DNA from: Lama guanicoe | Lineage: Eukaryota | Direction: 5' to 3' | NCBI GenBank assembly: GCA_013239625.1 | Contig: MU055269.1 | Span: forward strand, 2,968,441 to 3,032,440 | Length of the DNA: 64,000 nucleotides | Shown: piece after piece, positions 135-58,640 of the stretch | Layout of the letters: every line of letters begins with the position of its first letter | Numbering within the stretch: the stretch's first letter is position 1 | Position numbers and translations under genes: made by a program | The notes under the pieces: generated by a model | Databases searched by the model: none | The model's input: the letters and a program-made list of their open reading frames with translations, nothing else | Told to the model about the DNA's origin: nothing

Positions 135-266
135 NNNNNNNNNNNNNNNNNNNNNNNNNNNNNNNNNNNNNNNNNNNNNNNNNNNNNNNNNNNNNNNNNN
201 NNNNNNNNNNNNNNNNNNNNNNNNNNNNNNNNNNNNNNNNNNNNNNNNNNNNNNNNNNNNNNNNNN
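135..266. other. N-run, 132 bp (masked or unknown sequence)
   Basis: Counted directly; right flank is CNE-like sequence. Confidence 0.98.
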
Positions 267-700
267 AAATTAAATCGGGGCAGCCAACGACCTGCGAGTT
301 CCCAATACCACGGATAATTTACCCGGAGATCCGCCACGCTGGGCAAGGTGTCCTCACAAGCAATTCGCATTATTTCACATTAAGTACCAACTGAAGACCC
401 CTGAAGAAAATGAATGAATCAGATCTTGATATTTTCCTGTGGTGACTTGACACAGGAACTTTCAGAAAAACCAGGGGGCCGGGCAGCAACTGATGTTGCC
501 GCTCCAGTGACAACTTAGTGTCTGAGCGCAGAAAGCCGACCGGTCGAAAGCAGCGTCTTAGCCGTGAGGCGCCTCCCGGTTCTGCCCTGATTTCAGGTGG
601 TTCCTGTGCCTCCAGGTCTGCGCTGAGCCGATACAATGGAGAAAGTGAAGTGAGCGTCGGTGTTTAAGGCCAATCCATTCAAAACTGGATACATGTATTT
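267..700. promoter_or_regulatory. Candidate conserved non-coding element (enhancer-like)
   Basis: No recognisable repeat; homeodomain/TALE-like words (aaattaa, gataattt, cattatt, cattaag, tgaca); abuts N-run. Confidence 0.55.
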
Positions 701-704
701 TAAA

Positions 705-935
705 CACCGCTGAGTATGCACCCAGTCACCCCGCAGAGCGCTGCAGAGCCCGGCGTCACCCCCTCGTGGAAGGAGAGTGCCCGAGCCGGCGCGGGCCACC
801 TCCTCCCACAGCGGAGCTGAAGCTCAGGTGGCCCCTGAGCCCGGCCTCGGCCGCCGCCCCTCCCTCCCGGCAGCCGCACCAGCGGGAGCCCCCGCCCAGC
901 TGGGGTCCGCCCGGTGACCGCCCAGCCACCACGCA
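705..935. promoter_or_regulatory. Small CpG-rich patch
   Basis: Dense CpG (gagccggcgcgggcc, cggcctcggccgccgcc). Confidence 0.5.
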
Positions 936-1639
936 CGTTCAGCAGGTGGCCCCATTTTCGCTAGAGCTGGACTGCAGTGTCTCTCTATCCTCTCAAGTGA
1001 AAAGAAAACCCAGGAAAAATATATGTTGACAATAAGGGTGGATTTTTCCCCAGTGTGTACACATAATTCAGTAGTTTAATGCAACAGGTGAACGCTGGTT
1101 TAGGTGTGCTGATGTCCAAGTTACTTGACGTTCTGTGGCCCAGTTTCCACACTGGGGAAACCCTCTCTGATGCCCGTCCAGGGGACGGCTGACCTGTGGG
1201 GAGAGGGCAGGGGTGGTCTGGGACCCAGGACTACCTCTCCTGCCGGGAGCTGTCAGTCGTCCATCCCCACTGCCACTGTCCTCTGGAAGACAGTCAGCCT
1301 CAAGTGAGGAAACACATGCAGAGTTCCCAGCTTTGCTCCACTGTTTGACAAATGCTAGGTCTCTCCCCTCAATGCCCCATCTCCTTCCAAATGTGAAATT
1401 CAAGTCCAAGGTGAGCCCACACAGCGGTCTGAAGGCAGGGGAAGCCGTCGCTGCTACGTCTGGCTCCGTTCTACCGTCAGGAAGCTGAGCTTATCCCAGC
1501 TGAACACTTAGATACTTAAAAATTATCCATAGATCTGATTTTTAAAGTTTTATTTAAAATCTAACACATTTACAAAATCAGTTTCTCAAGGTTAGTGTAA
1601 AATATGTGAAAGTTGCCAAATGGTCATCGACTTAAATGC

Positions 1640-1860
1640 CCCCAAGCTGGCCAGTGACAGAGCTATTGAATGGTATTCGTTCTCAAAAACAATGGTTATG
1701 AAGGCTACGTAGTAATATGGGGAACAGTTACGTGACATTACTTGAAAAAGTATATTTAGTGTCAAATGTTGTGTGTTTGCAAAGTGTTGAGATTGCAACA
1801 ATGTGCAGAAGTTGCCCATAAAAAAGTGAAACACACACACACCTGAGACGTGATGTAAAC
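1640..1860 (+). mobile_element. Possible old L1M 3' fragment
   Basis: Weak resemblance to L1ME 3' UTR (gaatggtattcg...atggggaacagttacgtgacattacttgaaaaag). Confidence 0.3.
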
Positions 1861-2064
1861 GTGGTGCTTCAGCCGCCTTTGGACTTTCACGTCTGATCTG
1901 AAATTCAATACGTTTTAAGCTCCCCTTCCAAAATGGAAACCGAATATTCCCCCTAAACTTTACTCCTCTTAAAACCTACTTGTGCTTAATTTGGAACAAA
2001 ATCCTTTACAATAAATGGCTTTTCATTTTTTCAGACCCTGTAAAGCATTGCAGGGTCTGAAGCA

Positions 2065-2125
2065 AGAGGCAGAACAGGTGAGTGCAGACGCCCTGGGTTC
2101 GAGTCCCAGCTCCGCCCCACTGGGT
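2065..2125 (+). mobile_element. MIR SINE fragment
   Basis: cctgggttcgagtcccagctccgcc matches MIR head GGGTTCGAATCCCGGCTCTGCC. Confidence 0.4.
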
Positions 2126-3023
2126 TTTGTAAAACCAGGTGAGAGTCAACATTCTCCAAAGCTCTCCCCGCAGGGCCCGACGGTGACAAGCAATAGCGTC
2201 TGCAACTGCGTCTGACGGAGTGCATGGCATGGAGGCTTAGCAGGGTGTAGCCGGTAAAGTTCTGTTAACATTGTGCTTAGAGCCTCATCCAAAGGCAGGA
2301 GCCACTGTTCGTTGCACAGGTGAGAGGCGTGAAGGTCCTGGAACCTAAACTTCTCCAAGGTCAGGCGTTTGATGAGCCACAGAGCGGCCACCAGCGCTGG
2401 TGCCGGAGGAGCCAACGCCCGTCTCCGAGGCCGCCCCAGAGGCGCCAGTGGAACCCACGGTAGACACGACCAGAACACGTGTCCATCACAAGAGGCGGTG
2501 GAAGCCAGTCCAGGGCAGTGAAGGCCCAGGGCTAACACGCGTCCGCGCAGCCTAGAGCCGGGCGGCCCTTCCCGGGGAAAGGTGCTGGCAGAAGCGTTTC
2601 AGTTTCACACGCTCGGAAACGAACAGCCGTTCTGAGTCCCAGCTAGAGTTTACGCAGGGCGTACCCCACGTCACTCTAGGTCCTGACTCCTCCGTCTCTC
2701 TGCCTCGCTCTCCTTCCAGATCCCCTCCGTGTGTCTGGGTCCTGTGGCCGGCCCGCAGAGGCCGGGTCCCATGCTATGCGTGAGCCGTGTCCTCTGCGGC
2801 GGGTGGTGGGGGAGCCTGAGTGTGTCCAGTGCTGGGAGGGGCAGCTGTCACCGTAGCCCCGTTAGGGGCCAGATTTGCAAGAGCAGCATCAAACATGACT
2901 GGGGTTCCTCCACCCCCTGGCTCTGTAATGTGGATGGAGCGTGGGGTTAAGCGGAGAAAGGAAGGAGACAGTGAAGGGGAGGCAAGGCCACGGGAACATA
3001 AATCAAGAGAAGGAATTACGAGG

Positions 3024-3122
3024 TGAGGAGTGTATAGCTCGTTGGTGGAGCACATGCTCAGCTGCATGAGGTCCTGAGTTCCAGCCTCGGTACCTCCATT
3101 TAAAAAGAAAAAAGAAACAGGA
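3024..3122 (+). mobile_element. Vic-1-type camelid tRNA-derived SINE with TSD
   Basis: A-box-like tatagctcgttgg, B-box-like gagttccagc, A-rich tail; TSD aaggaattacgagg (3010-3023) / aagggattacgagg (3123-3136). Confidence 0.9.
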
Positions 3123-4059
3123 AAGGGATTACGAGGCTGAACACGGAAGACTCAAAGGAGAGCCTTCATCCGGCAAGAGTGTAAGAGGAGCCTGGCTCCG
3201 GGAGCGCCAGCCTGCCCCTGACCCGCACCCTGGGAAGCGGCTTGACCCAGGAGCCCCAGCCCACCCCGCGTCGCTTCCCTGGAGTGGGACTCTCGGCATC
3301 TGAAAAGAACCAGAAGTCCCAGCTATCAGCCCCGGTCTCACCTCGTCCACTGGCCCTTCCTTAGGTCTGTTTGGTCAGACGCTGTTGCTGAAATTCCAAT
3401 AGCACAAGGGGCACGTGGGCGCAAGTACCTCGGTCTTACCCAGTTCCGTCCCCACCAGCAGCTCAGCAATTACACACACTCCCTGCAATTTCTGCAGGGG
3501 GTGTTTGATCCAGGGAGGAAATGCCACCTTCATATTTTCACTCCAATGTTTGCTGTCTTGTCCCTTTCTGTCAAATCCAAAACGTTTTAGCAATTTGGAG
3601 TCTAGCTGGCTTTTCTCGGTTGCAGATTTGCAGACAACAGAACCAGGTCCAGGCTGCTGGCTGTGAAGGTGGGACACCACCCCCAGCCGCGCTGAGGCAG
3701 AGCGGCCGAAGCCCCGTTCCTTCCTCCAGTGCCTCCACTCGCTGGGGCGCGGACTTCCCTGTCCACACAGGCTGTTTAAACGCAAACACTGTTAAGCACT
3801 GTCTGTTTCTTCCTGTTATTCCAAAAACTGGGGAAGACATTAAACATAAAAACTTGTTAAAGCAAAGATTACAAATTTAAGCGCAGCACCGTCAGTAAAG
3901 CAAATGCCAACGTTCCAGTGGTGACGTTAACTGAAACACTCTTCACGTCCTGGTGACATTGACTCTCTGTTTAAAGGTCTAATTTGAAACTTCCACTATT
4001 TGGGGTGAGAAGGATGAATACTTTTATTATGAGTACACGTATTTCTTACAGCTTTGCAC

Positions 4060-4190
4060 CTTTAAGTAGGAAGCTCCTTGAAAGCAGGAATTTTCCTTTA
4101 ATTCATTGTGTGTGTGGCATCAGCTCAGTGGTGTAGGTCCAACAAAACAGAAACAGCTCTAGGAACATGCTCAGTTCAGTCAGATGGGTG
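4060..4190 (+). mobile_element. L2 LINE 3' fragment
   Basis: aagctccttgaaagcaggaa...ttcattgtgt resembles L2 3' end. Confidence 0.4.
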
Positions 4191-4499
4191 CTGTTACAGG
4201 ACCCGAGTGGCATGTGTGGTACCACACAGTTGCCCCATCACGTACTGACAGATACAACTCGAAAATGTCTACACTTCAACATGCACTTCATGGACCAGCT
4301 TCTAGAATTTAAAAAATCTTTTCCAAAATAATTTTAATTTCAGTTTTACTCCTTTTTTGTTTGTGAGTTACTTTTTATTCATATTTTGTTGGAGAAAGAC
4401 ATTGAGAGCACTAGTAGTGGAATTAGAAGAAAAGAAGGAGTTAGAACGCATACGCCTATATTCTCATACCTAGAAAATCGCCCGTCTCTCTAGTGTCAT

Positions 4500-5260
4500 T
4501 TTCCCTGCCTGCCTTCATTTATATAATGCATACATTTGCACAGTTGAAAAATTATAGTACAAATATGTAGGCTATATATTTATTTTGATAGTGTAATACA
4601 CATCCATTTTGGTGTCTCATTATTGCTCTACCTTTGGACCTTTGAAAAATATTTAAATAGCGCTGCAGTGGGCATCCCTTGCATTACTAGTTTGTGACAT
4701 ATTTTTCCTAGTTTTTTTTTTTTATCTAATATAATCCTCAAAACTCCTCCTGAGCGTTCCATATTTCTTCAAAATAACTTAGATAAATTGAAAGCACATT
4801 TCTAGCACAGCGATCATTTATTACAGTAAGTTATCCATTTGACCAAAGTTTCATAAAAAGCACGTGCACAGCTGTCATCACTTTTTCAGGCAGAACTAGA
4901 ACATTCTTTATTTTTATGATTGGTATTAACTAATCTACTAAAAATGTCATAAAACATTTATAGGCCAAAAAATGAAAAGAGACTAAGGAACACACTTATT
5001 GTAAACATGACAAATGATTCATAAATGAAAACACTTGACATCATAATTCCAAAGGCAGGAACAGATAATTCAATAAAGTGAAAAGCTAACAGCATAAAAC
5101 ATCTAAAACATGTTCATTCTCACAAAGAGTGAAAGAAATGACAGCTAAAGGACGAGAAAGCACTTTCCAATTATTAGAGGAAAAATCATCTAATATTTCG
5201 TCAATAAGGCTTAGGGAAAAACAGGCAGTCTAGGGAATTGAAGAAGAGTTTTAAACTAGA
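4500..5260. mobile_element. Degraded L1M fragments (minus about 4500-4720, plus about 4930-5260)
   Basis: aaatagcgctgcagtgggcatccctt (L1 minus); A-rich aaacatgttcattctcac...aaagaaatgacagctaaag (L1 ORF2 3' region, plus). Confidence 0.5.
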
Positions 5261-5361
5261 GTCACACTCTAGGTAGCTAGCTGTGCTGAGGGGCAGACAG
5301 ACGGATACAGAGAGAGAGGAAGGGTGGATGACGCACAGGGAGGCAGGTCATGTTCTCTCCA

Positions 5362-5730
5362 CCCATGTTTACCCTGCTGGAAATTAAAATGCATACATTG
5401 CCAACATTTACTAACTCATTTCAAAATAACAATAAAGCCACTGCATGTTACCATAATCACCATTTTTATAAAAATGAGTATTTTTCAAAAACAAAGACTT
5501 GATGGTGACAAGAGTGGTCGTGTTTTATATTTTTGCAAATGTCCCTAACGTCTGGCTTAACAGGAGGTGCGTCTGGGCCTCTGCTTTTAATGCCTTTTGG
5601 CTGAAGCATGTGAAGAACGCGCCATCTCACCCAGACATGCAGTCGGCAAGGAGGAAGCATTTTAACAGTTCTGCAGATAAGTGTGCCTATTCTTCTTTGA
5701 ACGTGCACTGAAATCCAGTGAGTGTTCATC
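5362..5730 (-). mobile_element. hAT-Charlie (Charlie1-like) DNA transposon fragment, transposase C-terminus
   Basis: aagagtggtcgtgttttatatttttgcaaatgtccctaacgtctggcttaa matches Charlie1; ORF 5466-5729(-) has VKPDVRDICKNIKHDH, like Charlie IKPDIKEICKNVKQCH. Confidence 0.8.
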
Positions 5731-8906: not shown

Positions 8907-9065
8907 TCTTATCTTTGTTTTCTTTTTTTTTTTTTTTTAGTAATTTTTGTAAAATTTTAACTTTATTTCATTTTTTTCCCTTAACAGAGGCACTGGGGAT
9001 TGAACCCAGGATCTCACGCAGGCCAAGCACACACGCTACCCCTGAGCCATCCTCTCCGCCTCCCT
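8907..9065 (-). mobile_element. Vic-1-type camelid SINE with TSD
   Basis: gaggcactggggattgaacccaggatctc...ctgagccatcctctcc with T-rich tail; TSD ggtcttcattttcttt (8891-8906) / ggtcttcgttttcttt (9066-9081). Confidence 0.9.
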
Positions 9066-14169: not shown

Positions 14170-14263
14170 GACACTTTCACAAGTGTGTGTGCACGCGCGT
14201 GTGTGCACGCATGTGTGTGTGCGTGCACGCATGTGTACGAGAGAGAGACAGAGGGCTTACACC
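14170..14263 (+). repeat. Arm 1 of inverted repeat (partner 15963-16030)
   Basis: 29-bp perfect core catgtgtacgagagagagacagagggctt plus gacact.tcacaagtgtgtg. Confidence 0.92.
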
Positions 14264-14769: not shown

Positions 14770-15085
14770 TTATGGTATAGGCAGTTGAGACACATCTATA
14801 AGTGATGAGATGGGAACTGACAAAGACAGAGGTCACACAGGGTCACAAAGGGCGTGCTATCACCACACGGGAGCGTCATCACAGAAAAGCCACCCACAGC
14901 GTAGAAAGGGGCAGAGCGACATGGAATTCTGCATACTGTACGTTACAATCTTAGCGTCAGGGTCAAAGTGGCTCCTCTGGAGCCGGCGGAGTCTGGGCGG
15001 GAACTGGGGGCTCTGGTTTCTTCTCATTACGAGTCTTCCTTTATTTTTTAATTGACCAAACCATGAACAAATATTGCTTTGACTT
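14770..15085 (+). mobile_element. Old L1 (L1ME-like) 3' end fragment
   Basis: aaagtggctcctctggagccggcggagtctgg...ttcttctcattacgagtcttcc...aaaccatgaacaaatattgctttg. Confidence 0.5.
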
Positions 15086-15339
15086 GATTAAACTGTATAT
15101 GCATTTTTAAATGCATGAAACTTTTATTGTGAATCCACATTCATTTTTAAAACAGAAGTAAGCCAGCAAGTTGTTTTAAGTTGGAAGCCACTTTTAATCC
15201 TATCTTCAAAGTCTAAATTATTTAAACAAATCAAAAATAGGAAACACCACTTTATTCTTTTTTTTTTCGGTGCAGGTGGAAATTCATTCTCTTGCTCTCT
15301 CAAAACACACACACAGACACACACACGCGCACACAGGAT

Positions 15340-15800
15340 TTTTTTTAATAAAAATAATCAGTAGTCATTATCCACATGAATTCAATGAGAAAATGTAACA
15401 CTGACAGCTCTCATTATCACTGAGGGCGAAATGATGCAGACCTGCATTTGTAGATCTGCTTAACTTAACATGTCAAATATTAGCGTCAAATGGGAATAAG
15501 GGCAGATGATTCTAGAGAGCTGTTATTACATGACATTCAAAGTCATACGCTATGTTCTGCAACACTCGAAGAAAGATAAAAATGAAAAATGAAGTTAATG
15601 AAAAGTTATTGCTTTACTGAAGACTGCAGAATCAGGCACTTCACATTAAAATAAAATCTTTGTAGAACACTAAAGCTCACAGAAAATAATAATTTGAGAG
15701 TGAATTGCCCTGATGGGGTCCTCTCCATCTCATGTCCGCAAATAGTCTCCCAGCTGAATCAGAAGGCGTTATTTTTGTCAGCGCGATGACTGACACACAC
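15340..15800. promoter_or_regulatory. Candidate CNE/enhancer
   Basis: About 460 bp AT-rich and repeat-free; TALE-type sites (tgacagct, tgtcaaat, tgacatt, ttgtcag) and ATTA cores (gtcatta, ctcatta, cacattaa). Confidence 0.7.
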
Positions 15801-15819: not shown

Positions 15820-16330
15820 CGTGGCGGCTGCTGTAGGGGGACGTGGGCACCGCCCACCAGCCGGACTCCAATTTCCACTCAAACGCCCGCGGGCCCGGCC
15901 GCCGCGCCGCCTCGCACGCGGGTCCGGGGTCCGACAGCCGCGCGCGGCCTCTTCCTGCAGAGGGTGGAAGCCCTCTGTCTCTCTCTCGTACACATGTGTG
16001 CACGCGCGCGCACACACTTGTGACAGTGTCTCCGCCGCTGTCCGGCGCTCTCGCCACAGCCGAGATTCAGTTCGCCCGCCCCGTGGGGGTCCCCGCGCCG
16101 CTCCGCTTGCAGGTGGGGGGCCTTGCGCGAAGCCCAAGCACCCGTTTCACCCTCCGCTGAAACGCAACGCGCGGCGCTGCTCCCCGTGGCGCGAGCGCGC
16201 GCCGCTCCTGGGCGCCCGCGACGCCGCGCACCTGCTGGTGCGGCGGCGCCTGTCTGGAGCCTTCTGCCGCGGGCGTTTCGTAGCCCCTCGGTCGGCTTCT
16301 CCATCGGTCCTGAACTAGCACCCGGCTTCT
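15820..16330. promoter_or_regulatory. Orphan CpG island (strongest in window)
   Basis: About 500 bp of very dense CpG (cgcgggcccggccgccgcgccgcctcgcacgcggg; gcgcgagcgcgcgccg); no exon recognised. Confidence 0.8.
15963..16030 (-). repeat. Arm 2 of inverted repeat (partner 14170-14263)
   Basis: Reverse complement reads gacactgtcacaagtgtgtgcgcgcgcgtgcacacatgtgtacgagagagagacagagggcttccacc. Confidence 0.92.
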
Positions 16331-19310: not shown

Positions 19311-20480
19311 CAAAACTGCCTGGTCCATTGTGGCAGCCTCTTATCTCTGCTTCTTTTAGTACCAATTTTTCTTTCTTTTAAAGACACCAAATGCACTCAC
19401 ACTACATTCCGTATTTGTTAATTCCAATATCTGCTTTCTTGGTGGGTCTTCCCAGGTACGGTTCTGCTGGCTGTGGCCTGTGGTGCAGAGTTCTAAACCA
19501 CAGAGCGAAGCTCAGCTGGTCCCACATGTGTCAGTGACTTTGGTTTTGGATTCATGTCTCTAGAATGACTTCTGTACAAAGTTATGGAAGCCTGGGTCCG
19601 AGTGTATTCCCCAGAGAAATTTTCCATTTTCTTCTTGTGAGAGCACCGCCAAACTGGGACAATTAAAGGCAAAAATTTCAGCTTGCAGTTTTTCCCACCA
19701 AGTCAGTGTGAGTTTTTGTCCCAGACCCCGGTGTGTCATTACCATATGTTTGAACTTTCACAGCAGAATGTGGCTTCTCCCCCGAGCACCCACCCAGTCC
19801 TGCTGCTAATATGCTTGCTTTTCTGACTCGTCCAAACAGTAAGGAGTCTCTGAGGGTCTACACATTTATGCTGATAAAACATGGACTTCATTTGTTTGTG
19901 ATATTCTGGTTTTCTGTAAGGCTTTGTGAAAAGAAAGTTTTAGCCCTTAATGGAAGATTTTCAAACAGTCGCCCTCCTGTGGAACAGCCTGCCTCCAAAT
20001 GTGTTTGAGGATGTGTTGGATGACTTCATGAGGTCATCGCTAGTCCTCTTTCTGCACAGAGAGGATAATTTTGCTTTAAAAAAATTCCTGTGACGCCCAT
20101 GCATGAATAAAAGATTCAAGTTAATATTGAAAACCTTCTGTTTGGTTGGACATATGGTTCTAGCAAGGCACAATTTAGCCTGCAGATTCTATAACAAATC
20201 TGATCATCGAAATCTAAAAATCGTTCTTTTTTGGTGTTCTGCTGGAAAAACGCTTCACAGTGAGGGAAAACAGGAGCTCCGTGACCCGTGGGGAGGAAGT
20301 GCAATTTTCCCAGTGATAATGTCTGCACCTGAGTACTTCCTTGGCATGTAGTATGTTTGGAAACACGCACTGAGGAAGTGTCACTTTGTGGAAGGACCCC
20401 AGATGGGTGCGGGCTGCAAGGGCAGCCTGGCTGAGGCAGTGGGAGATGGCCCCGGAACCTGGGACAGAGGAGGAACCTCT

Positions 20481-20615
20481 AAGGTGACCAGCTAATTTCA
20501 GTGTAAAGGGAACATGTCTCTAAATTAATTTAATTAACCAAGCCTCAACAGAGAGAAACAATTTGGGCACAGCCAGGACAAGACCGTCCCCTGTCCAAGT
20601 ATGACAGGTGCAGTG
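20481..20615. mobile_element. MER81-like hAT MITE
   Basis: Begins taaggtgaccagctaattt, like the MER81 terminus; internal gccaggacaagaccgtcccc. Confidence 0.4.
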
Positions 20616-20946
20616 AGACTTTATATTTACCCTCCTGGTTTCTGAGTGATGACATCTGAGAATTAATTACACAAGTAAACAGTGACATTTTGTAATTATC
20701 CAGATTCAAAGACTATGACTATTGCTTGGTGGATTGTCATGAGGGTTTTTGGTTTATTTGTGGCTTTTTCTTGCTTGTTTGTTTGCTCATTTCTTCTCTA
20801 ATTAGCTGAATCTTGTTACTTGTGGGTATTTTTGTGATAGAAGTTTACATTTGAATTTAAGGCATAAACATCCCCATTTTTGATTTGCAACACCTCTCAG
20901 CCTCTTTGATTCATTTACAGCAAATGAGTAATAACTAGTCACCCCT

Positions 20947-21006: not shown

Positions 21007-21639
21007 TTAGTCATGCCTAACAGGAGCAAAATGTATTAATTGAGAGTGATTCATCTAGTTAAGAATTTAGAGGGAAATAAAAGTATGTGACAGTTGCATT
21101 CTCATCATAAAAGGAGGGCAGATTTAACTGTTTCAAGGTCAGACTCAAAGTTGGTCTGACTTCCTTTTTATTTGTGACAATTTATGTATTTCCAGCCTAG
21201 GGATGGGGCACTGTTGGGGGAACAAAGAATTCCTGAAGTCTTGGATATAAAGTATCTTAGAGATGAATGGGCATTGTTTTAGCTTGTTTATTTTTATTAT
21301 GTATTTTGGGAAGAAAATTATGAAGACAGGTCTGACCCCGTGCTGTGTGTGGATTTCTGTGTTTCCCTCTGAAGATCTCCAGTGTTCCACCCGTAGCATC
21401 TCAGGGCCCAGCAGTTTCCGTGGTGCTATTCAACATCTGGGTGATGAAAGGGTGGGAGGGCGGAAGCCTGATTTTGGCACGGAGAGAGCACGGCTAGATT
21501 CCACACCAGCTGATTGAAGTGTAACGCTGCCAGAATCTCGGCCAACGGCATCCTTGTGCCAGTGAGGTCAGTGCAAAGCAGCGCGGAGGATTAGCGGGCC
21601 CTCTGGAACAGGAGCGGTCTGGCACAGTGCTTATTAAAA

Positions 21640-22380
21640 TGTAGGAACCGAATTAGCTGTACCTACGTGGCGCTCACCCATCATATAACTCACTTCAGTT
21701 CTCTGTGATGTTAATGAGATATGAAAAGCCTTTTCTCTGCTTACAAGGTGCCAGCACCCCAACATTAATGACACAGAAGCAGCTCCAGTGAATGGGAGAG
21801 AAAGGGTTCACCTACGCTGTAATTCATAATTGGCCGACTCAGGGGACCTGAGTCTTTTTGCAAGAAAACTGAAGCAGTTCAAGCTCTCAAATATGTTCCT
21901 TTCAAGCTCCCATTGTCACCGAGAAGGTCTGAAAGAATCCGTTTGCATCTAATTCGGATGGCAGTATTCCAGCCTGAAAAGACTCAGAGAAGAAAAGAAA
22001 GGAGAAGGGAAAAAAACCCTCCTGCCTCTGTGAGGCCCGCGTGTGACACTGGGATTTGTTGGCATAAAAACGCCCCTGTGACAGACATCATTATATCATT
22101 GCAGGAAGGGGAAGCATGAATAGGTCCCCCAAATATTTCTGGCAAAGGGCCAGATGTCTGCAGTTCAGACATGCTCCTCTGAGGGGCTCCCTGCCTCCTG
22201 GGGTGATGCGAGGCCGACGCGGGGGCCCACTGGGCGACACTTTATTTTAAGCTTCCATCAATGGGCACTTAACTACCACTAATTCAGAACAGTGGCTTGG
22301 GGACTATGTTTGCGAGTCACACACATATCAAATGATTCCGCTGTGATCGGTTTTATTGCGGTGACGCTGGGCGACGGCGC
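21640..22380. promoter_or_regulatory. Candidate CNE cluster
   Basis: aattagc, cattaatgac, gtaattcataattggcc, ctaattcgg, ggcataaaa, tgtgacag, ttttattg. Confidence 0.5.
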
Positions 22381-24698: not shown

Positions 24699-24838
24699 NN
24701 NNNNNNNNNNNNNNNNNNNNNNNNNNNNNNNNNNNNNNNNNNNNNNNNNNNNNNNNNNNNNNNNNNNNNNNNNNNNNNNNNNNNNNNNNNNNNNNNNNNN
24801 NNNNNNNNNNNNNNNNNNNNNNNNNNNNNNNNNNNNNN
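24699..24838. other. N-run, 140 bp
   Basis: Counted directly. Confidence 0.98.
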
Positions 24839-24950: not shown

Positions 24951-25114
24951 NNNNNNNNNNNNNNNNNNNNNNNNNNNNNNNNNNNNNNNNNNNNNNNNNN
25001 NNNNNNNNNNNNNNNNNNNNNNNNNNNNNNNNNNNNNNNNNNNNNNNNNNNNNNNNNNNNNNNNNNNNNNNNNNNNNNNNNNNNNNNNNNNNNNNNNNNN
25101 NNNNNNNNNNNNNN
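24951..25114. other. N-run, 164 bp
   Basis: Counted directly. Confidence 0.98.
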
Positions 25115-25565: not shown

Positions 25566-25713
25566 NNNNNNNNNNNNNNNNNNNNNNNNNNNNNNNNNNN
25601 NNNNNNNNNNNNNNNNNNNNNNNNNNNNNNNNNNNNNNNNNNNNNNNNNNNNNNNNNNNNNNNNNNNNNNNNNNNNNNNNNNNNNNNNNNNNNNNNNNNN
25701 NNNNNNNNNNNNN
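25566..25713. other. N-run, 148 bp
   Basis: Counted directly. Confidence 0.98.
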
Positions 25714-28019: not shown

Positions 28020-28240
28020 TCCATTCTTCAAACATTCTTTGAACGTCTATAGCTCAGTAACAAAAAACAGGCAGAAATTCCTGTCTTCATTGCTGCTTAA
28101 GTTCTGGTAAAAAGACACAACTGATAAAGAAGGAAGATATTTACAATATTACATGGTGACCACACTGCTCTGAGAAATCTTCAGCAGGAAAGAGGGTTAG
28201 AGATTGTGCACGTTGGTTGTAACATGAGGTTTTCATTAAA
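28020..28240 (-). mobile_element. L2 LINE 3' fragment
   Basis: cattcttcaaacattctttgaacgtcta...aacaggcagaaattcctgtcttcat...gcttaagttctggt. Confidence 0.55.
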
Positions 28241-29429
28241 GGAATTAAACACTGAAATGCTCTAATGTAAAGAATATTTTCTGTTAAAGAAATGAACAGC
28301 ACTGAAAATACTTTAGAATGAGCACTCACTTCTAATTGCACGTAACTAAAACTGATCTGAATAATCAAGCTGATCGTGGAACAGAGCCAGGAAGCAGATA
28401 CGGTCTCCAACCAACAAGCTCCCTTTCAAAAATCCCCAACTTCACGCCAGCCAGTTTGTTCTCCACCTTCTCCGTAGCACCAATCAAAGGCCTGATTTGG
28501 GTGGGATGACTGTGTTCTTTTCGAATGAATGAGATCATGGCTGCTCAGGACACAGAGCAAAATGCGGGTGTGCATCAGATTGGGGGGAAAACCTGATGGA
28601 GGACACGGGGAGGCTGCCCGGGCAGGCAGTCCTCCATGGCATCTCTCAGAGCCCCGCCCAGGATCTCACAGAGGGCGCAGGGACCCCTGCTCACTGGCAG
28701 ACCGGCTGCCTCTTGGGAGCCTTGGGGAGCAGGCAGCCCCCTTCACTGCCATCACTTGCCTCTGCTGCCCTGGCCCCGGGGGTCCTCTCCCCTCCTCGCC
28801 ATCCCCCTCCCTCGGCCCCAGCTGGTCCCTCTTCCCCACCCCTGCAGTACCCACTCCTCTGGGTCTGGAATCAAGTCTGTCTGCAGGCAGTGAGTGTCCT
28901 GATCAGGGAGGAAGCCCCAGCCCGGCTGGTTCCCCAGCAGGATGGCTCTGGCCCCTTGCGAGGACACCTTCCCATGGGCGTTGGCTATCTCCTGGCCACT
29001 TAAACATGGAACGTTGAAATCAGCCCCGGCCCCCACTGCCCAGCGTTGGCTGGCAGGGCACTTCCCGACGTGGTTTCCCAGGTGTGGCGGAGCGCGGTGG
29101 ACACCCTTGCAGGGCGGGCGGCGTCCAGAAGGGAGACTGGCCCTGGGCCAGGTGAGCGCAGCCACCCGGGCCTCCTCCGCCGGCTCTCCTGGCCCCCAGG
29201 GAGGGCGGGACGGCCAGCAAGGAACCTGACCAGGGCCCTGGCGCCAGCAGAGCACCCGCCTCCGTGGCTGGGAGCTGCGGCGCAGAGAAAACACCTTAAC
29301 TCAGCGCGGGACCACCTTCCGAGTGCAGCTGGAGTGGGAAGCTGTCTGCCTCAGCCGTTAGAAAGGCGCGGGGAAATTACCTCGCGTTCCCTGTAGAGGC
29401 ACGCACCAGCCCGCCCGGCCCAGCCTCTC

Positions 29430-29790
29430 AGCGCCGCGGTAATGCGGCCCTATCAGGTTTAATGGCCCCGCGCTGGATTCAGGAGGTATTATGGATTGTA
29501 CAGCAAGCATATTGTCATTAAATTAAATTTTCAGAACATCCCCCAGCTCATCACAAATACCACAGAGAGTCATCATAATCGGCTCTCAACACATGTGTAA
29601 TTGCCTTCAGCTGGCGTTTTTTACAGTTGACATTGCTCAGCAGTGATAAGGTGATTGGCGATTTGAATACACAGCTTGTTTCATAGCCGCCGTAATTGAA
29701 ATATGGTGTGTGTGAATGGAAGATTGCATTAAGACCCAGGATAATCACCTGACACGCGAGTAATTGAGTCTACAATCTGCCACTGGGTCT
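29430..29790. promoter_or_regulatory. Candidate CNE/enhancer
   Basis: ttaatggcc, tgtcattaaaattaaa, three gtaattg, ttgacatt, gataag, tgattggc in 360 bp of non-repetitive sequence. Confidence 0.75.
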
Positions 29791-30010
29791 CTGAGGGAGG
29801 CCGGGAACGGCGAGAAGCCCATTAGCGGATCACACCACGGCCGCCTGGCTCCGCGCGCCCGTGCCAGGCTGGCGTTCCGCGCCGCGGGCGCCCAGCCGCG
29901 CCGTCGAGGGCCGGAACCGGGGCGGGGCGGGCCTCCTCCGGGAGAGCCGGCGGGTTCTAGAGCAGCAGCGCGCTGCTTTCCATGTTCTCCTCCGCTGGGT
30001 GCTGGCGGCC
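29790..30010. promoter_or_regulatory. Orphan CpG island abutting CNE
   Basis: ccgcgccgcgggcgcccagccgcgccgtcg; GC box ggggcggggcggg. Confidence 0.65.
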
Positions 30011-36169: not shown

Positions 36170-37860
36170 GCCTTTGGAACAAGACATTAAGAAACATGGA
36201 GGGACGAATGAGAAAGTCTGATAAACAAATACTATGCTTTCTAGAAAAGGAGGAGAGACTAACGTGGGGAGAGACATCACTGACAGAGATGAAGGGAAGG
36301 CTTTCCTAGAAACGGCGAAGGACAGCAAGTCCCTGCACCACACGCAGAATGCACAAGCGGCCGGCACCGAGGCCTGCCACGGGTGTCACAGGACACTGAG
36401 GCCGGGAGACCGCCTCAACAGCAGCGCGAGGACGACTTCCTGCAAAGGTACAGTATTGACGGAGGGCTGAATCCTCAACAGCAACAGTAGAAGCAGAAGA
36501 CGCATGAACAGTGTTCAAAATGCTGGGGGAATTCCCCACGCACCTGCGGCGGTTTGCCCAGCTGAGTCATCATTCGTAAGCAAGGGTGACCCGTGACAAC
36601 ATTAATATTTACAGCATTTACAACATGCTCTGAGGGTGCAGACAGCGCCGAGCGTTCACACATACGAAATCTTGTAACCTCCACGAAGAGCCCCTGTTGG
36701 AACGGCACTACTCATGGCCCCACTTTGCGGACGACAAAATTTAAGTACAGAAGCCTTAAATCATTGCCCAAAATGTGCGCGTCTGGTAGGACTAAGATGG
36801 CTTCCTGACGACATGGTCCCAAAGGAGGAAACTCCCGGAGGTTGTGTTTTGTGGATCCCAGAGAAATACATAGGGCGTTTCTAAAAAATGGATTGTGACC
36901 AAAAGATATTCATAAACGTATGGGTTCATGTTGGTAAGCCCTAAGCGCATAAAACAACATGAGCACAAGGAAGATTAACTGGAGAGGATAAGAACCAGAT
37001 GAGGTACCAGGTGATACCAGGTGGCCACACGAGGCAGCGCTAAGCTGTGGCACCGGGGCGATGGCCAGAATGAGAGGCTTCTGAGGGTTCACACTGAGGG
37101 GAGGAGGCAGAGAATCTGCTTCCATGTCTAGTCAAGAATGCTTAATTATTCACAGCACGCCCCTGAACTAATAAAAATACGACGTCTAACCACATTACAT
37201 TGGAAAGATAATAATGGGAAAATATAATAGATAAGAAACTCCAGTTGCTTAAAAAATCTGGTGGACTGTTAATAGACGACAGACATTAATAGTTAAGCAT
37301 TATACATGGCTCAGTATAACGATAATGAAACACTTCACCAGGAAGATGACAATTCTGAAGTTTCAATTACTTAATAACAACTTTAAAATATAAAGAAAAA
37401 CAGTAGAATTACAAGAAAACATTGAAAATCTATAATCACAGCGGTATAATGTAACACTTTTTTGTTGACAGCTGACAGGGGCAATAGGCCAAAAAGCAGT
37501 GTTTACAGAGAGACATAAAATGTGTCTCAAGCCCGGTGTGACGGACGTCTCTAGGCAGAGCACTGTCCTCGGCACCTGGGGAGACGCACGTTCGGGCGCG
37601 TAGGCGGCTCACGAGACTGAGCACGTGCCGGACAAAGAAGGAAAGCGCAGGAAGTCCCGGGGCCTGGCGGGACAAGCGCACGTTCCAGCGAACAGCTTAG
37701 CGGAGATAACAAGAGATGACGCCGTTGGTTTGGAACCATGAGAACCAAACAACTTAGGAGTCAGAGATCATGACCGAAATTAGAAAACATGTAGAAAGGA
37801 GCGACGATAAATATACGTCAAAATGTGACCTGAAGCCACGCTTGCGGGAAGACACACGAC
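36170..37860 (+). mobile_element. Ancient L1 relic, ORF1 through ORF2 endonuclease region
   Basis: LRNMEGRMRKSDKQILCFLEKEER resembles L1 ORF1p LRDMEDRMRRSNIRLIGVPEGEER; caacagcaacagtagaagcagaagac; ttcaccaggaagatgacaattctgaa; gaaattagaaaaca. Confidence 0.8.
36595..36795 (-). mobile_element. MIR nested in the L1 relic
   Basis: ccccactttgcggacgacaaaatttaagtacagaagccttaaatcattgcccaaa matches MIR core. Confidence 0.65.
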
Positions 37861-41559: not shown

Positions 41560-42310
41560 CCGGCGTGAGCGCGGACACTCACCATTAAACAGGGTGAGCT
41601 AACTCTGCCCGAACATCAGCTTCATCGCATCCCCTCAAATAACAAGAGACTAAAGGTCCCAAAATGCCCCAAAGTTATTCTCCAAAGACCAGGTAGCCAA
41701 TGACTTAGCCCAGATCAATCACCATTGAAGGTCGCCTGTCCTGTTCGGCAATATTTGCTCGGTAACTAATAAAGATCAGCCTCCAGTTATTTATATTAGG
41801 TTCTCATCTCTCCAGGGTGAAGCTTAATCCATTTTGCAATGTTTTTCCCAACAAGACAACATGAGTTTCTCCGTCTGAAAATGAATTNNNNNNNNNNNNN
41901 NNNNNNNNNNNNNNNNNNNNNNNNNNNNNNNNNNNNNNNNNNNNNNNNNNNNNNNNNNNNNNNNNNNNNNNNNNNNNNNNNNNNNNNNNNNNNNNNNNNN
42001 NNNNNNNNNNNNNNNNNNNNNNNNNNNNNNNNNNNNNNNNNNNNNNNNNNNNNNNNNNNNNNNNNNNNNNNNNNNTTCAACATCTTATAGGTTTCCAATT
42101 CCGCAGCACAGAGAAAGCAAATTTATTGTAATACATTTAGCCGCTCTGGAAACGGGAGTATCCAGCCTGCTTCCTCCAAGACTATGGAAGGTATCAAATC
42201 GCATCTTAAAGGGATATTTATGAAGTGCTAGGTACTAATGATCACAATTGCAGATAGAGCTTCAAGTGTCTACCTATGAACAGGCCCATATAAGAGAGGG
42301 CGGGTGGCTG
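41560..42310. promoter_or_regulatory. Candidate CNE around N-run
   Basis: PBX consensus atcaatca 41714-41721, K50 site taatcc 41825-41830, ctaataaa, tttattg, tttatga, ctaatga. Confidence 0.7.
41888..42075. other. N-run, 188 bp
   Basis: Counted directly. Confidence 0.98.
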
Positions 42311-43067: not shown

Positions 43068-43742
43068 GGGCGGGGGTGGGGGTCATGCCAGGCCCCTGGG
43101 CTGGGCAGGGATCCTCGTTGCCAGGGCGTGGGCCGCGGGTCCTTCTGACGGCCAGGCAGCAGCTCCCTTCCGGGGAAGCGGGACAGAGGCGGCGTGACCC
43201 CGGCCTGCAGACTTGGGGGGGGCCAGCAGGGCAGGGACAGAGGGAGACGCCTCGGGAATGAGCCAAGTGTGACAACCGCTACCAGGTCTGGATGCAGCAT
43301 CGGGGGCCTCGTGCCAAATGGAAGTGGCGCCCCGTGTTCAGAACTAGTGAGAGTTCAGAAACTTGGACAGCAGTGCTGGGTCTTCGTAAGCCCAGGACCC
43401 GACAGCCCGGCTTCAGGGCGGCAGTGCCTCCCCCTCGCAGATTGCCTTCCTGTGCGTCTGCTCCCGAGCACCCCGTCTGCAGGAGCGCAGTCCTGGATCA
43501 GGGCCACCCAAACCAGCAGGGACTCACTCTTTCACTCGCTCACACCTACAAAGACCCTGCTTCCAAACAAGACCGCAGTCCCAGGCGCTGGGATCAGGGC
43601 GTGGACAGACATCTGTGAGTGCAGGCCTACCAGGCAGGGGCCCTGGGGGGCGTCAGGGACAGCACGATCGTGCGCCAGTCCACCTGGGGGCAGGGGTGGG
43701 GGTCATGCCAGGCCCCTGGGCTGGGCAGGGATCCTCGTTGCC
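43068..43742 (+). repeat. 55-bp direct repeat pair (43068-43122 and 43688-43742)
   Basis: One mismatch; first copy flanked by 15-bp duplication ggcgtgggccgcggg. Confidence 0.95.
43490..43630 (-). mobile_element. MLT1 (MaLR) LTR fragment
   Basis: ggatcagggccaccc...acctacaaagaccctgcttccaaacaagaccgcagtcccaggcgctgggatcagg. Confidence 0.7.
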
Positions 43743-47079: not shown

Positions 47080-48310
47080 CTGTGTTTCATATAGTGATTT
47101 GCATAAAGACGATGCTTTTTGATGTCAAATAAACTTGGCTTTATGAAGATTCAAACAAAGATCTTTCCCTCGACTCTTATTTTGTCTCAATGTGAGAACC
47201 TCTTTAGACCACGCTTTGTTTTTCATATAAAGTTCCCAAGTTTATTAATTTAAATCTAAATTACAATAAACCACCATGAGCACGACACCTCCCCAAACCA
47301 ACACATNNNNNNNNNNNNNNNNNNNNNNNNNNNNNNNNNNNNNNNNNNNNNNNNNNNNNNNNNNNNNNNNNNNNNNNNNNNNNNNNNNNNNNNNNNNNNN
47401 NNNNNNNNNNNNNNNNNNNNNNNNNNNNNNNNNNNNNNTTCTCTGCATATTACAGACTGAGCTAACGGTCTGCTTGGGACGATCAGTCTTCAGCAGGAAG
47501 TGCTTTTGCTAACAGTCTTTTAATGTATTTATTAGTACTTCAATAATATTGAAGTAGTGCGCTGGCAATTTAGCTTAAATATTCCATTTCAATTAAACAT
47601 TTGACCTCTTCGAACTCTCTGGAATTCTCAAGTTAGGGACTGGTTTGTAATTACGCCATTTGTGGGTACAGTATAATATAATAACTCCAGAGTTTCATTG
47701 TTTTAGTGCCTAATGGAGATGTTCTGTATAATGAAAAATTCCCAACATATGAGTGCCGATTCCCTGGAGGGTGAGGACCAGTCACAATGTCACTCAAGGT
47801 CATGAGAGAAAAAGTTGGCGATAGCTGACGCACAGGCAAGAACTCAAGCTCAGCAAACTCGGGTTCTACTCTCGAGCTGGCCGCTGACACGCAGGGTCTC
47901 CTTAGGAAAGCCTTTCTCTCCTCCCGAGCGTCTTCTCTTCTGTGCAATGAGGTACTATTGCTTGATGCGTTTTACTCCCCAAAGCTCCTATGAGAGCAGA
48001 GTCATCTAAATTTCTATGTAAATGACTCTCTGCTAATTGGTGATAAGATAACTTTAGTAAAAACGTGGGATTATGACAGAATCTTTTATGGGAAGAATTA
48101 TCATGATTCTCATTTTTATTCTGAAAACAAAATGAAACTTCATAAAGGTTGTCATGGCAGATTTGCATTTATATTGGCTTTTAAAAGCCACAGTGGCAAC
48201 TAGTACCTATAAATAAATAGCACCGCCGTGCGTTTAAGCGCAGCGCTGTGAACGAGTAAGCGTGCGACAAAGTCTGCTGAACAAAAATGGCGGTTCTTAA
48301 TCATATGTTC
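47080..48310. promoter_or_regulatory. Candidate CNE cluster around N-run (MIR-like insert near 47850-47960)
   Basis: tttatga, ttattaattt, caattaaac, gtaattac, ctaattgg, attatgacag, ttttatgg, ttcataaa. Confidence 0.65.
47307..47438. other. N-run, 132 bp
   Basis: Counted directly. Confidence 0.98.
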
Positions 48311-52775: not shown

Positions 52776-54234
52776 AATAGAAGTCAGAATCCTTCACTCT
52801 TCTAAGACCCTCTCTGCTCTTGGAGAATCATAGATAATTTACTTTTATTACATTTTAAAGAGCATAAAATCAGCTTACACATAGATAAAACCAAGCTCAC
52901 CACATGCACAGAATAATTATGAAGTCAATAAAACATTCCGCAATCTTAAGAACACATGTCAATAACCCTGCCGAGAGAAGCCAGGATCCGTCACACGGTT
53001 CGTGGTCCCGGGAGGTAGTTAATATTCCAGGCAAATTTGAGCAGGTTGGTGATGTGATTTAGCTGTCTCAACCGTGCTGAGTGATCGCCTCCTCAGATCG
53101 AGGAGCGGGATGGCGAAGAAAACAAAATCACTGCTCTCACCTTCGATTTCCTCACCCCGTCCATGACAGTTGTGCGTTTCTGTGTGCGTTTTCCACGGCT
53201 CAGGATTAGCCGGTGTGACAGGGGGTTTTAATCTGTGGTTCCACCCATGAGCACATACAATACATGCAGCTCTCTCAGCACAAGCCCTGATTTTGGAAGA
53301 TTACAAATTACAGGACCACAGGCAATAGCCACACAGTTTAGGTCCGAGATGTCCGGTCATGACGCGGAAGTGGGAGGCGGATACAGCCGGTGTCGTCTGA
53401 CAGCTGTCCTGGGACACACGCGGCACCCTGAGCTCCGTCTCCAGGATGTGACTTCGCATGGGGATGGTCACACCCTCCTGTCAGGCGGCTGTGCGGGTGA
53501 AGGGGACGAGAGTGCTCAAAACGCCCAGCAGCCCACCTGCCAGAAACGCTGGTTTCCTCCCTCTGCTCTTCCTCCTTGTATTCAAACCTTTCAGTCTCTC
53601 TGTTAAAGGCAGGGCGTTTCAAGTCCCCGGTTTCCAGTCTCTCCATCTGCAAAGTGGAAGCAGTAGCATTATTTGTTACTTCCGTGCTGACCACTGCGTG
53701 CGAAGCCGCTTTCTCCATCACTGGCAGCTACACGGACGCTGCTCGCTGTCTGAGCCCCATTATGGGTGTCCTCTCTGCTCTTCTCTGAAATGCTGCTTGT
53801 GTGACCCGCATGTGTGTGACTGTGAGCTGAAACACCAGTTTAAACGTGGGTTTTGGTGTGCTCACCAAAGCTTGAAGCAAACACACAAAACATCCTGTCC
53901 AACTGCAGTTGGACAAACGCTCGGCGTTGGACGAGCCTACCTGCTAACGGTGGTGGCAGGACAGGACTGAGACCTTGGAGAGGCGGCGCTCTGGCTTCTT
54001 CCCTCTCTGAAACGTTCTGGAAACTAACGCACCAATGACTTCAGTGCCAACAGCCCAAGTCGTTCATTTTTCTCAAATATGTTTGAAAGTTGACTTTTAG
54101 AAATGCTTTCCGTCTGGATCAGTGAGTGCGCTGTGAGTGCTGAACTACCAAAAGATCTCTCATGAGAACAGCACTCGGCTTCCATACTGAAAGGGCTAAA
54201 ATGCCAAATTCGGCTTTTCAGGGATAAGATCGAT

Positions 54235-54350
54235 CGCTGCCCATCGGACTGAACAAGGAGCTCCCTTGAGGAAGCCGACCTCTTCCGTCCTCTTTCCAGG
54301 GCCCGGCAACAGTGGGAGCACAAAGTGTTGGTTGAATGAACGGGTGAACG
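54235..54350 (+). mobile_element. L2 3' terminus fragment
   Basis: gagctcccttgagg...ccagggcccggcaacagt...gttgaatgaac. Confidence 0.5.
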
Positions 54351-57130
54351 GTTGAGATTTCTCCTGGTCCCTGGAGAGAGGGTGCTCGGTTTCCCAGCCC
54401 CGCCATCTCTTCGCGTGGAGGTCACTGTCTCCTGACCCGTGAGACCGGGGACGGGCAGTCAGCCTGACCGAGTTCTCCCTCACAGCATCAGATTTTAATT
54501 TCAGAGTGGGAAAGAAGATGTTTTCAAACAAGCTATAAGTAGACAGTTGGAGAATTTGGTGGAAATAGGGGAAAAAACGTTAAATGTTAAAAGGATGTTA
54601 TTTGGGAGAACAATGAGTAATTGGATGCATTCAGCGAACCAAAAGGCTATATGAGTATTTTATTACTTAAATAATATAATTACATAAATCAAAGCGCTAA
54701 TTTGGTTGGGACAATGCACATTCAAAAGGGAATGGGAGATGGTTCTTTTCTCAGAACTGCTCTCAAAATACTGGTAGAAAAAATGAAAGAATATCTAGCC
54801 ATGCATCTGAGCCACCGTGGTAGCCCCCCTCCCAGCTCTAGTAGAAACTGTCTCATCAGTGTCAGCGTTTTCGTAATTTCTAATCTGTAGTTAACAAGTA
54901 CATAACGAGTCTATATGGAGCTTTTTGAAGCATACTCTTGTCTAGTTGCCTAATTTTTATAAAAATCCAACAGACATTAAAACAGGCAAACTTGAGGTGG
55001 TAACACCAATATTCAAACTTCTACCGCAGTCTTGAAGCCAGGCCATCATGTACATAGTCAAGGCTGTGTCTCTTGATTTGACTTCATAACAGAGCACGTG
55101 ATAAAACATAACTTTCATTGCAGACTATTATATGTGTCTTAAGAGAAAATCTATCCAAATGAATACTTCACTGTATTGCGATTCTTTTTTCTTTGAGAGG
55201 ATTCATTTGGACACAGATTTTTAAAGCTCGGAAATGAGGAGTTTAGGATAAAAGGAAAATCAGAAGAAAAGAACAGAAAGAAGCGGGGAAGGGAGGCAGG
55301 GGAGAAGGATAGAAAGGAAAAGCGAAGAAAGCAGACAGAACTGAATCTGTCCTGAGTGCAGCTGGGCGTGTCTGCTTGACTTAAATGACCTGAGAGGTCT
55401 CAAAAACAGATCGGAAAAGCTAATTACTTTTTTTTCTAAATCATATGAAGAAAAAGTGATTAAGCGGGTCAGATTTCCTTGTAGCCATTTCTGAGACAGT
55501 ATAAAAAAACTCTCAAAAGTTTGCAAACTTGCCAGGCGGCTTCACGAAGGCTGTCATCCTGGCAATGTCCTTTTCCGTAGTGTTCAGTCACTCAGATCAC
55601 CTTTTCCGTACTTGCCCGTTATTCTGGAAGAACATCACAGATAACAAAATATGTTAAACACAGAGTAAGAAGCCTGTGGCTTTGGGAAAAGATTTCTGTG
55701 CTTGATATCCTTAACTCAAGGGCTGAGTGAGATTCTGTCATCAAAACGGAGTCTGGGCCGTCACCTCCATGAACAGTGTCCCAGAGAAGTGGGGGCTTCT
55801 GCAGGTGACAGGTGGCCTATGAGACGGACCTAAGCCGTAATATGGTCCTCTGTGGAGCACGCGTCTGCAGTTGGTTCCTTGGGGATGGAGACAGATCAGT
55901 TATGTCATCCAGCTGGTGGGGGTGGAGACAGGCTGGGGCCAGAGGACACGGACCTTGGCCATCTACCTCTGTCTTCTGTGACCCAGGAAGCACTCAGGAC
56001 TGCACTACAGTGTCCGTCACTTCTTACCAAAGAGGGTGGATTATGACAGTTTGAGAAATACTCTCAGGAGAATCTCAGAGCTGGGGTGTCCTCCAGACTC
56101 CACAGACACTCTTGTTAACTCTCCCAGAGAAGTATCAGCTGAGTAAGTTATTTGTTACATTCGAGTGGTTATCAAATAACATGCGTTCCTGGAGCATAAA
56201 GATTGCTTCCTAGAAGAATGAGAAGTAATCCTTCCTTTTAACATTTTCACCTTTCTTCTGCTCATCCAATTCTCAGTCTAGTTTTGACTCATTTGGAATA
56301 ATGTGAAATACTTTAAAGTCACTGAAGCACTTAGAAAATACGCAATTGTATTTATGCAGTCAGATGTTTGCCATTCTGAGCAGAGGGGTGTGGGAGTGGG
56401 AAGACTTAAAAACTAGCCCAAAACAGACAGTATCAAGAAAAGTTCATCAGGACCTTCACGGACGTGGACACTGCCTGGTGGTGCTACCCATCAGCCTGTG
56501 CAGGTCATAGAAGGAAGAAAGAAGGCAGTGAAGTGCATTAGGATACAAGGGAGAGGAGCGAAGTCGGCCGAAACAAAGGCTGCTTCCAGGTCAGAGGGGT
56601 GAGGGTCGGTCCCTTTGCCTCTTTCCGTTTATACTGATGGGGGCGCGCAGGCCAAAGGCCCAGCGCGTTCTCAGGACCACCAGCCCGGGGAGGGGGGGCT
56701 CCGAGACCCCACGTCGGCGCCAGAGAGAAAGTGAACTGGAGCAGAATTTCACACCTGTGTTTCTCTGCCCCCGCAGCAGTGGTCGCTCTGCGCTGGCTCT
56801 GGCGGGCGGCTCCGCGCCTCCCAGGAGAACCCTCCTCCGGGCGCCCTGAGAGCTGACTTTCCTGCTCAGACCGCCTCTGCGAGATCTTCATCCTTCCCTT
56901 TGACACGCGTCCCCTCCGGTTCTCTCCCAGCCTTCTCCCAGTGAGCGCGAAGGAGCCGAATCACCCAGGGAGGCCCCGAGAGCCCCTCTGCTCCCATGCT
57001 CCTCCCAGGACGCCGCATCCCCGTCACGCGGGGAGTCTTCTCCTGATGTAAGTGGCCAAGCGGCCTTGGCAGAGGCCGCCCGAAGGGCCGGGCCTGCGGC
57101 TCCGAGTCTAGGTGGCCAGGCGCAGGTGCT

Positions 57131-57313
57131 TGGGGGTGTGGTCCCAGAGGAGGGGCGTGGCCACAGTGGAGGGTGTTGCCATAGTGGAGGGGTGTGGTCC
57201 CAGTGGAGGGGCGTGGCTGTGGGTGGGCGGGGCATGGTCACAGAGGAGGGGCGTGGCCATAATTAAGGGCGTGGTGATGGTGGGGGCACGGTCATGGCGG
57301 AGGGGCATGGCCA
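57131..57313 (+). repeat. G-rich minisatellite, about 10 copies of about 19 bp (consensus GGGGCGTGGCCACAGTGGA)
   Basis: Units ggggtgtggtcccagagga, ggggcgtggccacagtgga, gggtgttgccatagtgga and so on. Confidence 0.9.
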
Positions 57314-57439
57314 GAGAGCACCCACTGGTCTGAGCACCTCTGTGGCCACACTTGCCCGTGGGGTCTCAGCCAGTCCAGGCCACAAGCCACCGCGATGAGC
57401 CTTCCCGGCTTTATGTCCTCTTGGGAAAAACAAACCTGG

Positions 57440-58640
57440 ATTTGTGGTTTGAATTGTTTTGGTAGCATATTAATGAAGAATGCTCTGCTGGAAACAAGAT
57501 GAAAATATGCCTTTAATAAGGACATTTTCCAACACCACAGACCGAATTTGAGCCACTGAGTGATGACGCACTAGGAATTTCTCTTAAAAAATGAAGAAAG
57601 GGCAGAAAAAACCCTTTCCACGTTCGGTGTCCTCTTGATGTGTGTTCAACATATTTCTTTAAAGTTTTTTACTGTTCTTTCTTCAAAGACGACTCAGTTT
57701 AATAGAAATGTTTTACAATTGCTGAATGTATAATATTGTTTATAAGAGGGAATTACAAAGAATGGATATATACCAATAAAAATGGCATATTAGGGATTTT
57801 TTTAATTCTCAAAGAAGAAATAATAACAAAATAATGTCTTCATAATGGGGGTGGGTGGGGAAGAGGAGAAAGCAAAGTTAAAATAAAGAAAATAAAAATT
57901 CGACAATAACCAAATGTACTAAAATGTGTTTTTTCCCTNNNNNNNNNNNNNNNNNNNNNNNNNNNNNNNNNNNNNNNNNNNNNNNNNNNNNNNNNNNNNN
58001 NNNNNNNNNNNNNNNNNNNNNNNNNNNNNNNNNNNNNNNNNNNNNNNNNNNNNNNNNNNNNNNNNNNNNNNNNNNNNNNNNNNNNNNNNNNNNNNNNNNN
58101 NNNNNNNNNNNNNNNNNNNNNNNNNNNNNNNNNNNNNNNNNNNNNNNNNNNNNNNNNNNNNNNNNNNNNNNNNNNNNNNNNNNNNNNNNNNNNNNNNNNN
58201 NNNNNNNNNNNNNNNNNNNNNNNNNNNNNNNNNNNNNNNNNNNNNNNNNNNNNNNNNNNNNNNNNNNNNNNNNNNNNNNNNNNNNNCTCTGAAATAATGA
58301 CATGCTGCTTTTAGACAATTTCTTAGACTAATGGGTTGTGAGGAGGGAGGGGGCATGAACATGCATTTTACTTTATTTCTGTGACATACTTCGACTGATT
58401 ATAAATCTACACGGAAGGAAAGATTGCAAATATTTACCAGATCTTTTAGGATGATATCCATACAAAGCTACATTTCTTTTTCTCAGTCCTTAGAAGAGGT
58501 TAATGTAAACATTTCCTTTTTTGCCAAAATAGTCTTATTTTTTTAATGTTCCTTTTTGCAGCATACTTGACTCATAATTGGCCATAAGAGAAAAATATTT
58601 GTAGGAACAATTGCCTTTGATTTTCTATGAAATAACTCAA
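57440..58640. promoter_or_regulatory. Large candidate CNE around the longest N-run
   Basis: 1.2 kb AT-rich and repeat-free; attaatga, ccaataaaa, cttcataat, taatgaca, ctaatgg, cataattggcc. Confidence 0.7.
57939..58286. other. N-run, 348 bp
   Basis: Counted directly. Confidence 0.98.

Follow-up and report, generated by a model that had tools for sequence, protein, structure and literature searches.

Seven N-runs of shared length residue in the GALR1-SALL3 desert of Lama guanicoe: probable preparation blanks within a known cluster of conserved elements

A stretch of 64,000 nucleotides from Lama guanicoe (contig MU055269.1, here C4972, positions 2,968,441-3,032,440; hereafter the window) is interrupted by seven runs of the letter N, whose lengths all leave the same remainder on division by 8. 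The window falls within the GALR1-SALL3 gene desert and is located 251-315 kb upstream of the large SALL3-like exon. The question raised by the locus is whether the runs reveal something about the genome, such as the position of its most conserved non-coding DNA, or something about how the sequence was handled. It is almost certain that the seven N-runs are blanks from data preparation and that the desert around them is a known cluster of conserved elements, likely long-range enhancers and silencers of SALL3.

The regularity was recovered on recount. The window contains 1,252 N, all in the seven runs listed in Table 1, and the seven lengths agree with those on which the original prediction was built: each is 4 mod 8, their differences have 8 as greatest common divisor, and the starts (7, 3, 7, 6, 0, 3 and 3 mod 8) have no common phase. 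In 2,000,000 draws of seven random lengths between 100 and 400, a divisor of at least 8 arose at a frequency of 9.5e-6, which allows for the post hoc choice of modulus; the value of (1/8)^6 given earlier equals 3.8e-6. The text that set the task states that parts of the window had been swapped for N, one N per letter, when it was first read, that an N of this origin carries no information on the letters beneath it, and that within the window a replacement and an assembly gap look alike. If the blanks were made in preparation, as is most likely, the length pattern common to them would describe that step and not the genome. All seven runs would stem from this replacement, and the mod-8 pattern, which has no biological mechanism, would be a by-product of the procedure that drew the blanks. 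Such lengths would follow from many rules, including the one originally proposed, a screen with a stride of 8 against a foreign genome, which fits the arithmetic.

N-runs elsewhere in the same assembly (2.05 Gb in 55,231 contigs) provided the comparison, using a sample of 157 stretches covering 1.57 Mb outside the window. The 10 runs found there measure 19, 124, 3576, 161, 306, 256, 116, 205, 1618 and 462 bases, and two of them have lengths of 4 mod 8, as opposed to seven of seven in the window (Fisher p 0.002). Their flanks exceed those of the window runs both in GC (p 0.007) and in repetitiveness (p 0.0004), and include GGC tracts, CT tracts, TA repeats and one tandem array; GC is at least 0.69 in 7 of the 10, and trinucleotide entropy is 2.8-4.2, whereas the window flanks have a GC content of 0.36-0.59 and an entropy of 4.0-4.7. 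Density differs as well. The adjoining 770 kb of desert holds three N-runs, from which 0.25 would be expected per 64 kb rather than the seven observed (Poisson 1e-8), and the expectation ranges from 0.25 to 0.41 overall. Thus, the window runs lack the flanks at which assemblies break, namely GC extremes and tandem or simple repeats, and neither their sizes nor their density resemble those of the gaps of this assembly. The contrast in lengths, flanks and density sets the seven window runs apart as a separate population, as replacement predicts. Together with the task text, it bears out the earlier claim that the runs are a mark of processing and not ordinary scaffold gaps. One outside run, 161 bases long (L061:3655-3815) with GC-rich flanks, splits the large exon of a ZNF516-like gene and is probably an assembly gap.

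Several points weigh against this account. The 10 outside runs may themselves contain replaced stretches, since two of them, of 124 and 116 bases, share the residue of 4 mod 8, both with GC-extreme or repetitive flanks, and no individual window run can be assigned with certainty to replacement or to gap. Conservation of the flanks is read only from base composition and locus. A comparison of the visible flanks of the runs with 600 kb upstream of a SALL1-like gene (described below) gave 16 hit rows and the reversed control 17, most of them from one T-tract. The rough score of open reading frames, by which no convincing coding exon was found in the window and the 600 kb around it, is a crude measure that short exons could escape.

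The sequence next to the runs has a distinctive composition. Because runs 2-4 share a span of 1,015 bp, the flanks were tested as five independent sites rather than seven. Over 200 bp on each side, mean GC was 0.40, compared with 0.54 for randomly chosen sites (11 of 10,000 draws were as low), and the motif TAAT or ATTA occurred 1.69 times per 100 bp, compared with 0.51 (4 of 10,000 draws were as high). The earlier description of the flanks as mostly AT-rich and rich in homeodomain motifs stands by the five-site test, with runs 1 and 3 as exceptions in their GC content at 100 bp (Table 1). As observations, the length pattern and the AT- and TAAT-rich flanks are both confirmed. No tandem repeat overlaps an N-run among the seven detected in the window; the closest, a GC-rich minisatellite at 57133-57256 composed of 6.5 copies of a 19-bp unit, lies ~680 bp before run 7.

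Islands rich in A+T and TAAT were delimited along the window, and five of the seven runs have one within 500 bp. Most islands (10 of 15) have no run within that distance; examples lie at 4500-5225, 15025-15700, 20475-20850, 21625-21900, 28175-28425, 37050-37550, 52825-53025 and 54500-54850. Some of these islands may be conserved elements and others repeat remnants.

What the blanks cover is a separate question from how they arose. On balance, we think it probable that they cover some, though not all, conserved non-coding elements (CNEs) of middling rank, which would be SALL3 enhancers like their neighbours. The visible flanks are non-coding and non-repetitive by the Rfam, tandem-repeat and open reading frame surveys; they are A+T-rich relative to their surroundings on the five-site test, except at run 1; and they belong to a cluster beside a developmental regulator. 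This make-up agrees with that of vertebrate conserved elements, which are A+T-rich, 11 human elements of this kind being assigned to SALL3 (PMC1852409), and many more elements with >90% identity among mammals are reported from the same 700 kb (Rizzolio et al., 2008; PMC2180198). The AT- and TAAT-rich flanks may accordingly be the edges of conserved elements, to judge by base composition and locus. Against this stand the GC-rich flanks of run 1, the N themselves, which say nothing about the underlying sequence, and the lack of a paralogous match for the flanks beside the SALL1-like gene. As few elements are duplicated, such a lack of matches fits either case. A cover of middling-rank elements is compatible with blanks from preparation and implies no new kind of biology. 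Of the claim that the runs sit in CNE-like sequence, the part concerning flank composition fits, as does the setting in a desert known for CNEs, and the part that ranked the runs as the most conserved is not supported.

The published conserved elements of this desert bear on that ranking. Rizzolio et al. (2008; PMC2180198) described 11 highly conserved non-coding elements (HCNEs) between GALR1 and SALL3 on human chromosome 18q23. These are 100% identical between human and mouse over 100 bp and at least 97% identical to chicken; some had enhancer or silencer activity in cell lines, and according to the authors none is ultraconserved, defined as 200 bp long at 100% identity. One published primer was placed for each of six of the 11 elements (HCNE6, 7, 8, 9, 10 and E, with HCNE1-5 left out). 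All six mapped once each, with 0-1 mismatches, and reversed controls gave no hits. HCNE6 to 10 follow in numerical order towards SALL3, and by their numbering HCNE1-5 should lie upstream of HCNE6. The cluster thus resembles its human counterpart in the gene order GALR1, desert, SALL3 and in the presence of these primer sites, and differs in the size of the desert, which is ~0.88 Mb here and is stated to be 2 Mb in human (PMC2180198). None of the six placed sites is touched by an N-run.

HCNE9 lies inside the window. Its forward primer matches exactly at 29545, and its reverse site at 29777-29798, read by eye, has one mismatch. The 254-bp interval has a GC content of 0.44, that of its flanks being 0.66 and 0.76, and contains no N, the closest run being 3,832 bp away. 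This orthologue is fully visible and was not flagged in the original prediction. In reporter assays of human DNA, HCNE9 was an enhancer in COS and HeLa cells and a silencer in P19 cells (PMC2180198).

Against this background, it is very unlikely that the blanks are the most conserved cores of the window and that an ultraconserved element of at least 200 identical bases lies beneath the 348-base run, as was first proposed. The composition of the flanks, which exceeds chance, the islands beside five of the runs, and the location in a known conserved-element cluster, to which the assignment of 11 human-fish elements to SALL3 belongs (PMC1852409; PMC2180198), all favour such a ranking. It is opposed by HCNE9, which carries no N despite being among the 11 elements with complete human-mouse identity over 100 bp (PMC2180198), and by the 10 islands that have no adjacent run; HCNE8 and HCNE10 lie outside the window on either side (Table 1). 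A role of the N as markers of the most conserved elements is accordingly not supported. Nor is the identification of the 348-base run as a true ultraconserved element: PMC2180198 reports no element in the desert reaching 200 bp at 100%, and how long a blank is does not tell how long any match is.

A narrower version, in which the 348-base run or the cluster at 24.7-25.7 kb hides an element of ultraconserved rank missed by earlier catalogues of the SALL3 desert, is likewise very unlikely. Ultraconserved elements are defined by >200 bp of identity in human, mouse and rat, and ultraconserved non-coding elements (UCNEs) by >200 bp with at least 95% human-chicken identity (PMC3531063). What the runs have in common with both classes is a non-coding, AT-rich environment, in a gene desert next to the gene of a developmental transcription factor. 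They differ in that six of the seven are shorter than 200 bases, run 7 alone exceeding that length as a blank, which is not a match length, and in that, according to PMC2180198, the desert has no element of 200 bp at 100% human-mouse identity. SALL3 is not named in the main text of PMC526512 or PMC3531063, whose supplements, or the databases, may list elements of the desert. A literature search linking a UCNE cluster to SALL3 gave no match, the entries of UCNEbase and VISTA lying outside that search.

Least probable of all, and close to refuted by the comparison inside and outside the window, is an origin of the runs as ordinary gaps of a short-read assembly, their common residue having arisen by chance or by scaffolder rounding: the assembly is fragmented, short N-runs of a few hundred bases occur on the same contig, and gap and replacement are indistinguishable in the window, but the outside runs are scattered in size and share no residue, their flanks are GC-extreme or repetitive where those of the window runs are unique, they are far sparser, and the task text states that replacements were made.

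Table 1. N-runs, sites of published conserved elements and paralogous matches. Positions are those of the window unless a contig is named.
Feature	Position	Strand	Remarks
N-run 1	135-266	.	132 bases; lowest AT content of the seven in the 100-bp flanks (GC 0.59)
N-run 2	24699-24838	.	140 bases; opens a three-run cluster spanning 1,015 bp
N-run 3	24951-25114	.	164 bases; 100-bp flank GC 0.54
N-run 4	25566-25713	.	148 bases; third member of the cluster at 24.7-25.7 kb
N-run 5	41888-42075	.	188 bases
N-run 6	47307-47438	.	132 bases
N-run 7	57939-58286	.	348 bases; most AT-rich flanks, GC 0.32 (200 bp each side)
HCNE9 orthologue	29545-29798	+	Between the two chromatin immunoprecipitation primer sites of PMC2180198
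Primer site HCNE6	contig 2,752,260
Primer site HCNE E	contig 2,758,024		Just after HCNE6
Primer site HCNE7	contig 2,889,160
Primer site HCNE8	contig 2,933,856		35 kb before the window
Primer site HCNE9	contig 2,997,985		Inside the window
Primer site HCNE10	contig 3,184,295		152 kb after the window
AT-rich match to C2129	L002:245-524, contig C4972 2,778,685		E 2e-10
AT-rich match to C2129	L009:6733-6855, contig C4972 2,855,173		E 6e-18

The paralogous comparison used a SALL1-like gene on contig C2129 (61% identity), which we take to be SALL1 because the contig carries three IRX-type homeoboxes and from the known synteny. The 600 kb upstream of this gene, which make up part of the SALL1 desert, were compared in visible letters with the GALR1-SALL3 desert. 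There were 34 one-to-one hits, compared with eight in the reversed control; several look like interspersed repeats, and none of the 34 falls inside the window. Two AT-rich pairs outside the window are colinear, sharing both strand and order, with 74-77% identity (Table 1). To judge by sequence similarity, they are candidates for duplicated SALL1/SALL3 conserved elements, of a kind already known from four published pairs common to the two genes (PMC3595034).

The gene setting was established from protein domains. A profile search with zf-H2C2_5 gave the first anchor, a SALL-type gene with a C2H2 frame of 1,031 codons from contig position 3,283,137, in which the last finger pair has SALL3 as its best single-stretch PDB match (130 bits, compared with 106 for SALL4). 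GALR1 is represented by a 7tm_1 exon at contig 2,405,019-2,406,704 that matches galanin receptor 1 in PDB (E 1e-136), so that the desert extends over contig 2,405,019-3,283,137, with GC near 0.5 and a CpG observed/expected ratio near 0.6. The SALL3-like gene is followed by one exon with FCP1_C and one with BTB_2. From their peptides and the human 18q23 gene order, we take the neighbours to be ZNF516, ATP9B, NFATC1, CTDP1 and KCNG2. IRX and EBF deserts were rejected as alternative settings, as Homeodomain, Homeobox_KN and COE1_DBD had no match on the contig of the window among the scored candidates of a genome profile search.

Within the window, none of 131 stop-to-stop frames of at least 120 amino acids looked coding by reading, and no Rfam match was found. 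The neighbouring 300 kb yielded eight tRNA-type Rfam matches, which are probably tRNA-derived short interspersed nuclear elements (SINEs). A related pair of 55-bp sequences at 8993-9047 and 63511-63565 of the window is 75% identical and resembles the heads of a tRNA-derived SINE. A 55-bp direct repeat (43068-43122 and 43688-43742, 620 bp apart) is 98% identical and represents either a duplication in place or an overlap left by assembly. A 52-bp inverted repeat (14212-14263 and 15963-16014, 1,699 bp apart) is 90% complementary and begins in a TG/CA tract.

The DNA surrounding the blanks would form a long-range regulatory block for SALL3, in which short, A+T-rich islands with many homeodomain motifs, set within GC-rich spacer, may bind developmental factors and act across hundreds of kilobases. 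The choice of SALL3 as target is, in the case of HCNE9, the interpretation of the cited paper (PMC2180198); in the case of the N-run flanks it is that of the present analysis. N-run lengths on one residue mod 8 should be taken as marks of preparation, neither findings nor a ranking of conservation, and no such ranking can be drawn from the runs because the best-documented element of the window is fully visible. The biological weight of the pattern is small: it is most likely not a genuine feature of the genome but the trace of data handling, and the locus in which it stands is an already known and described enhancer cluster.

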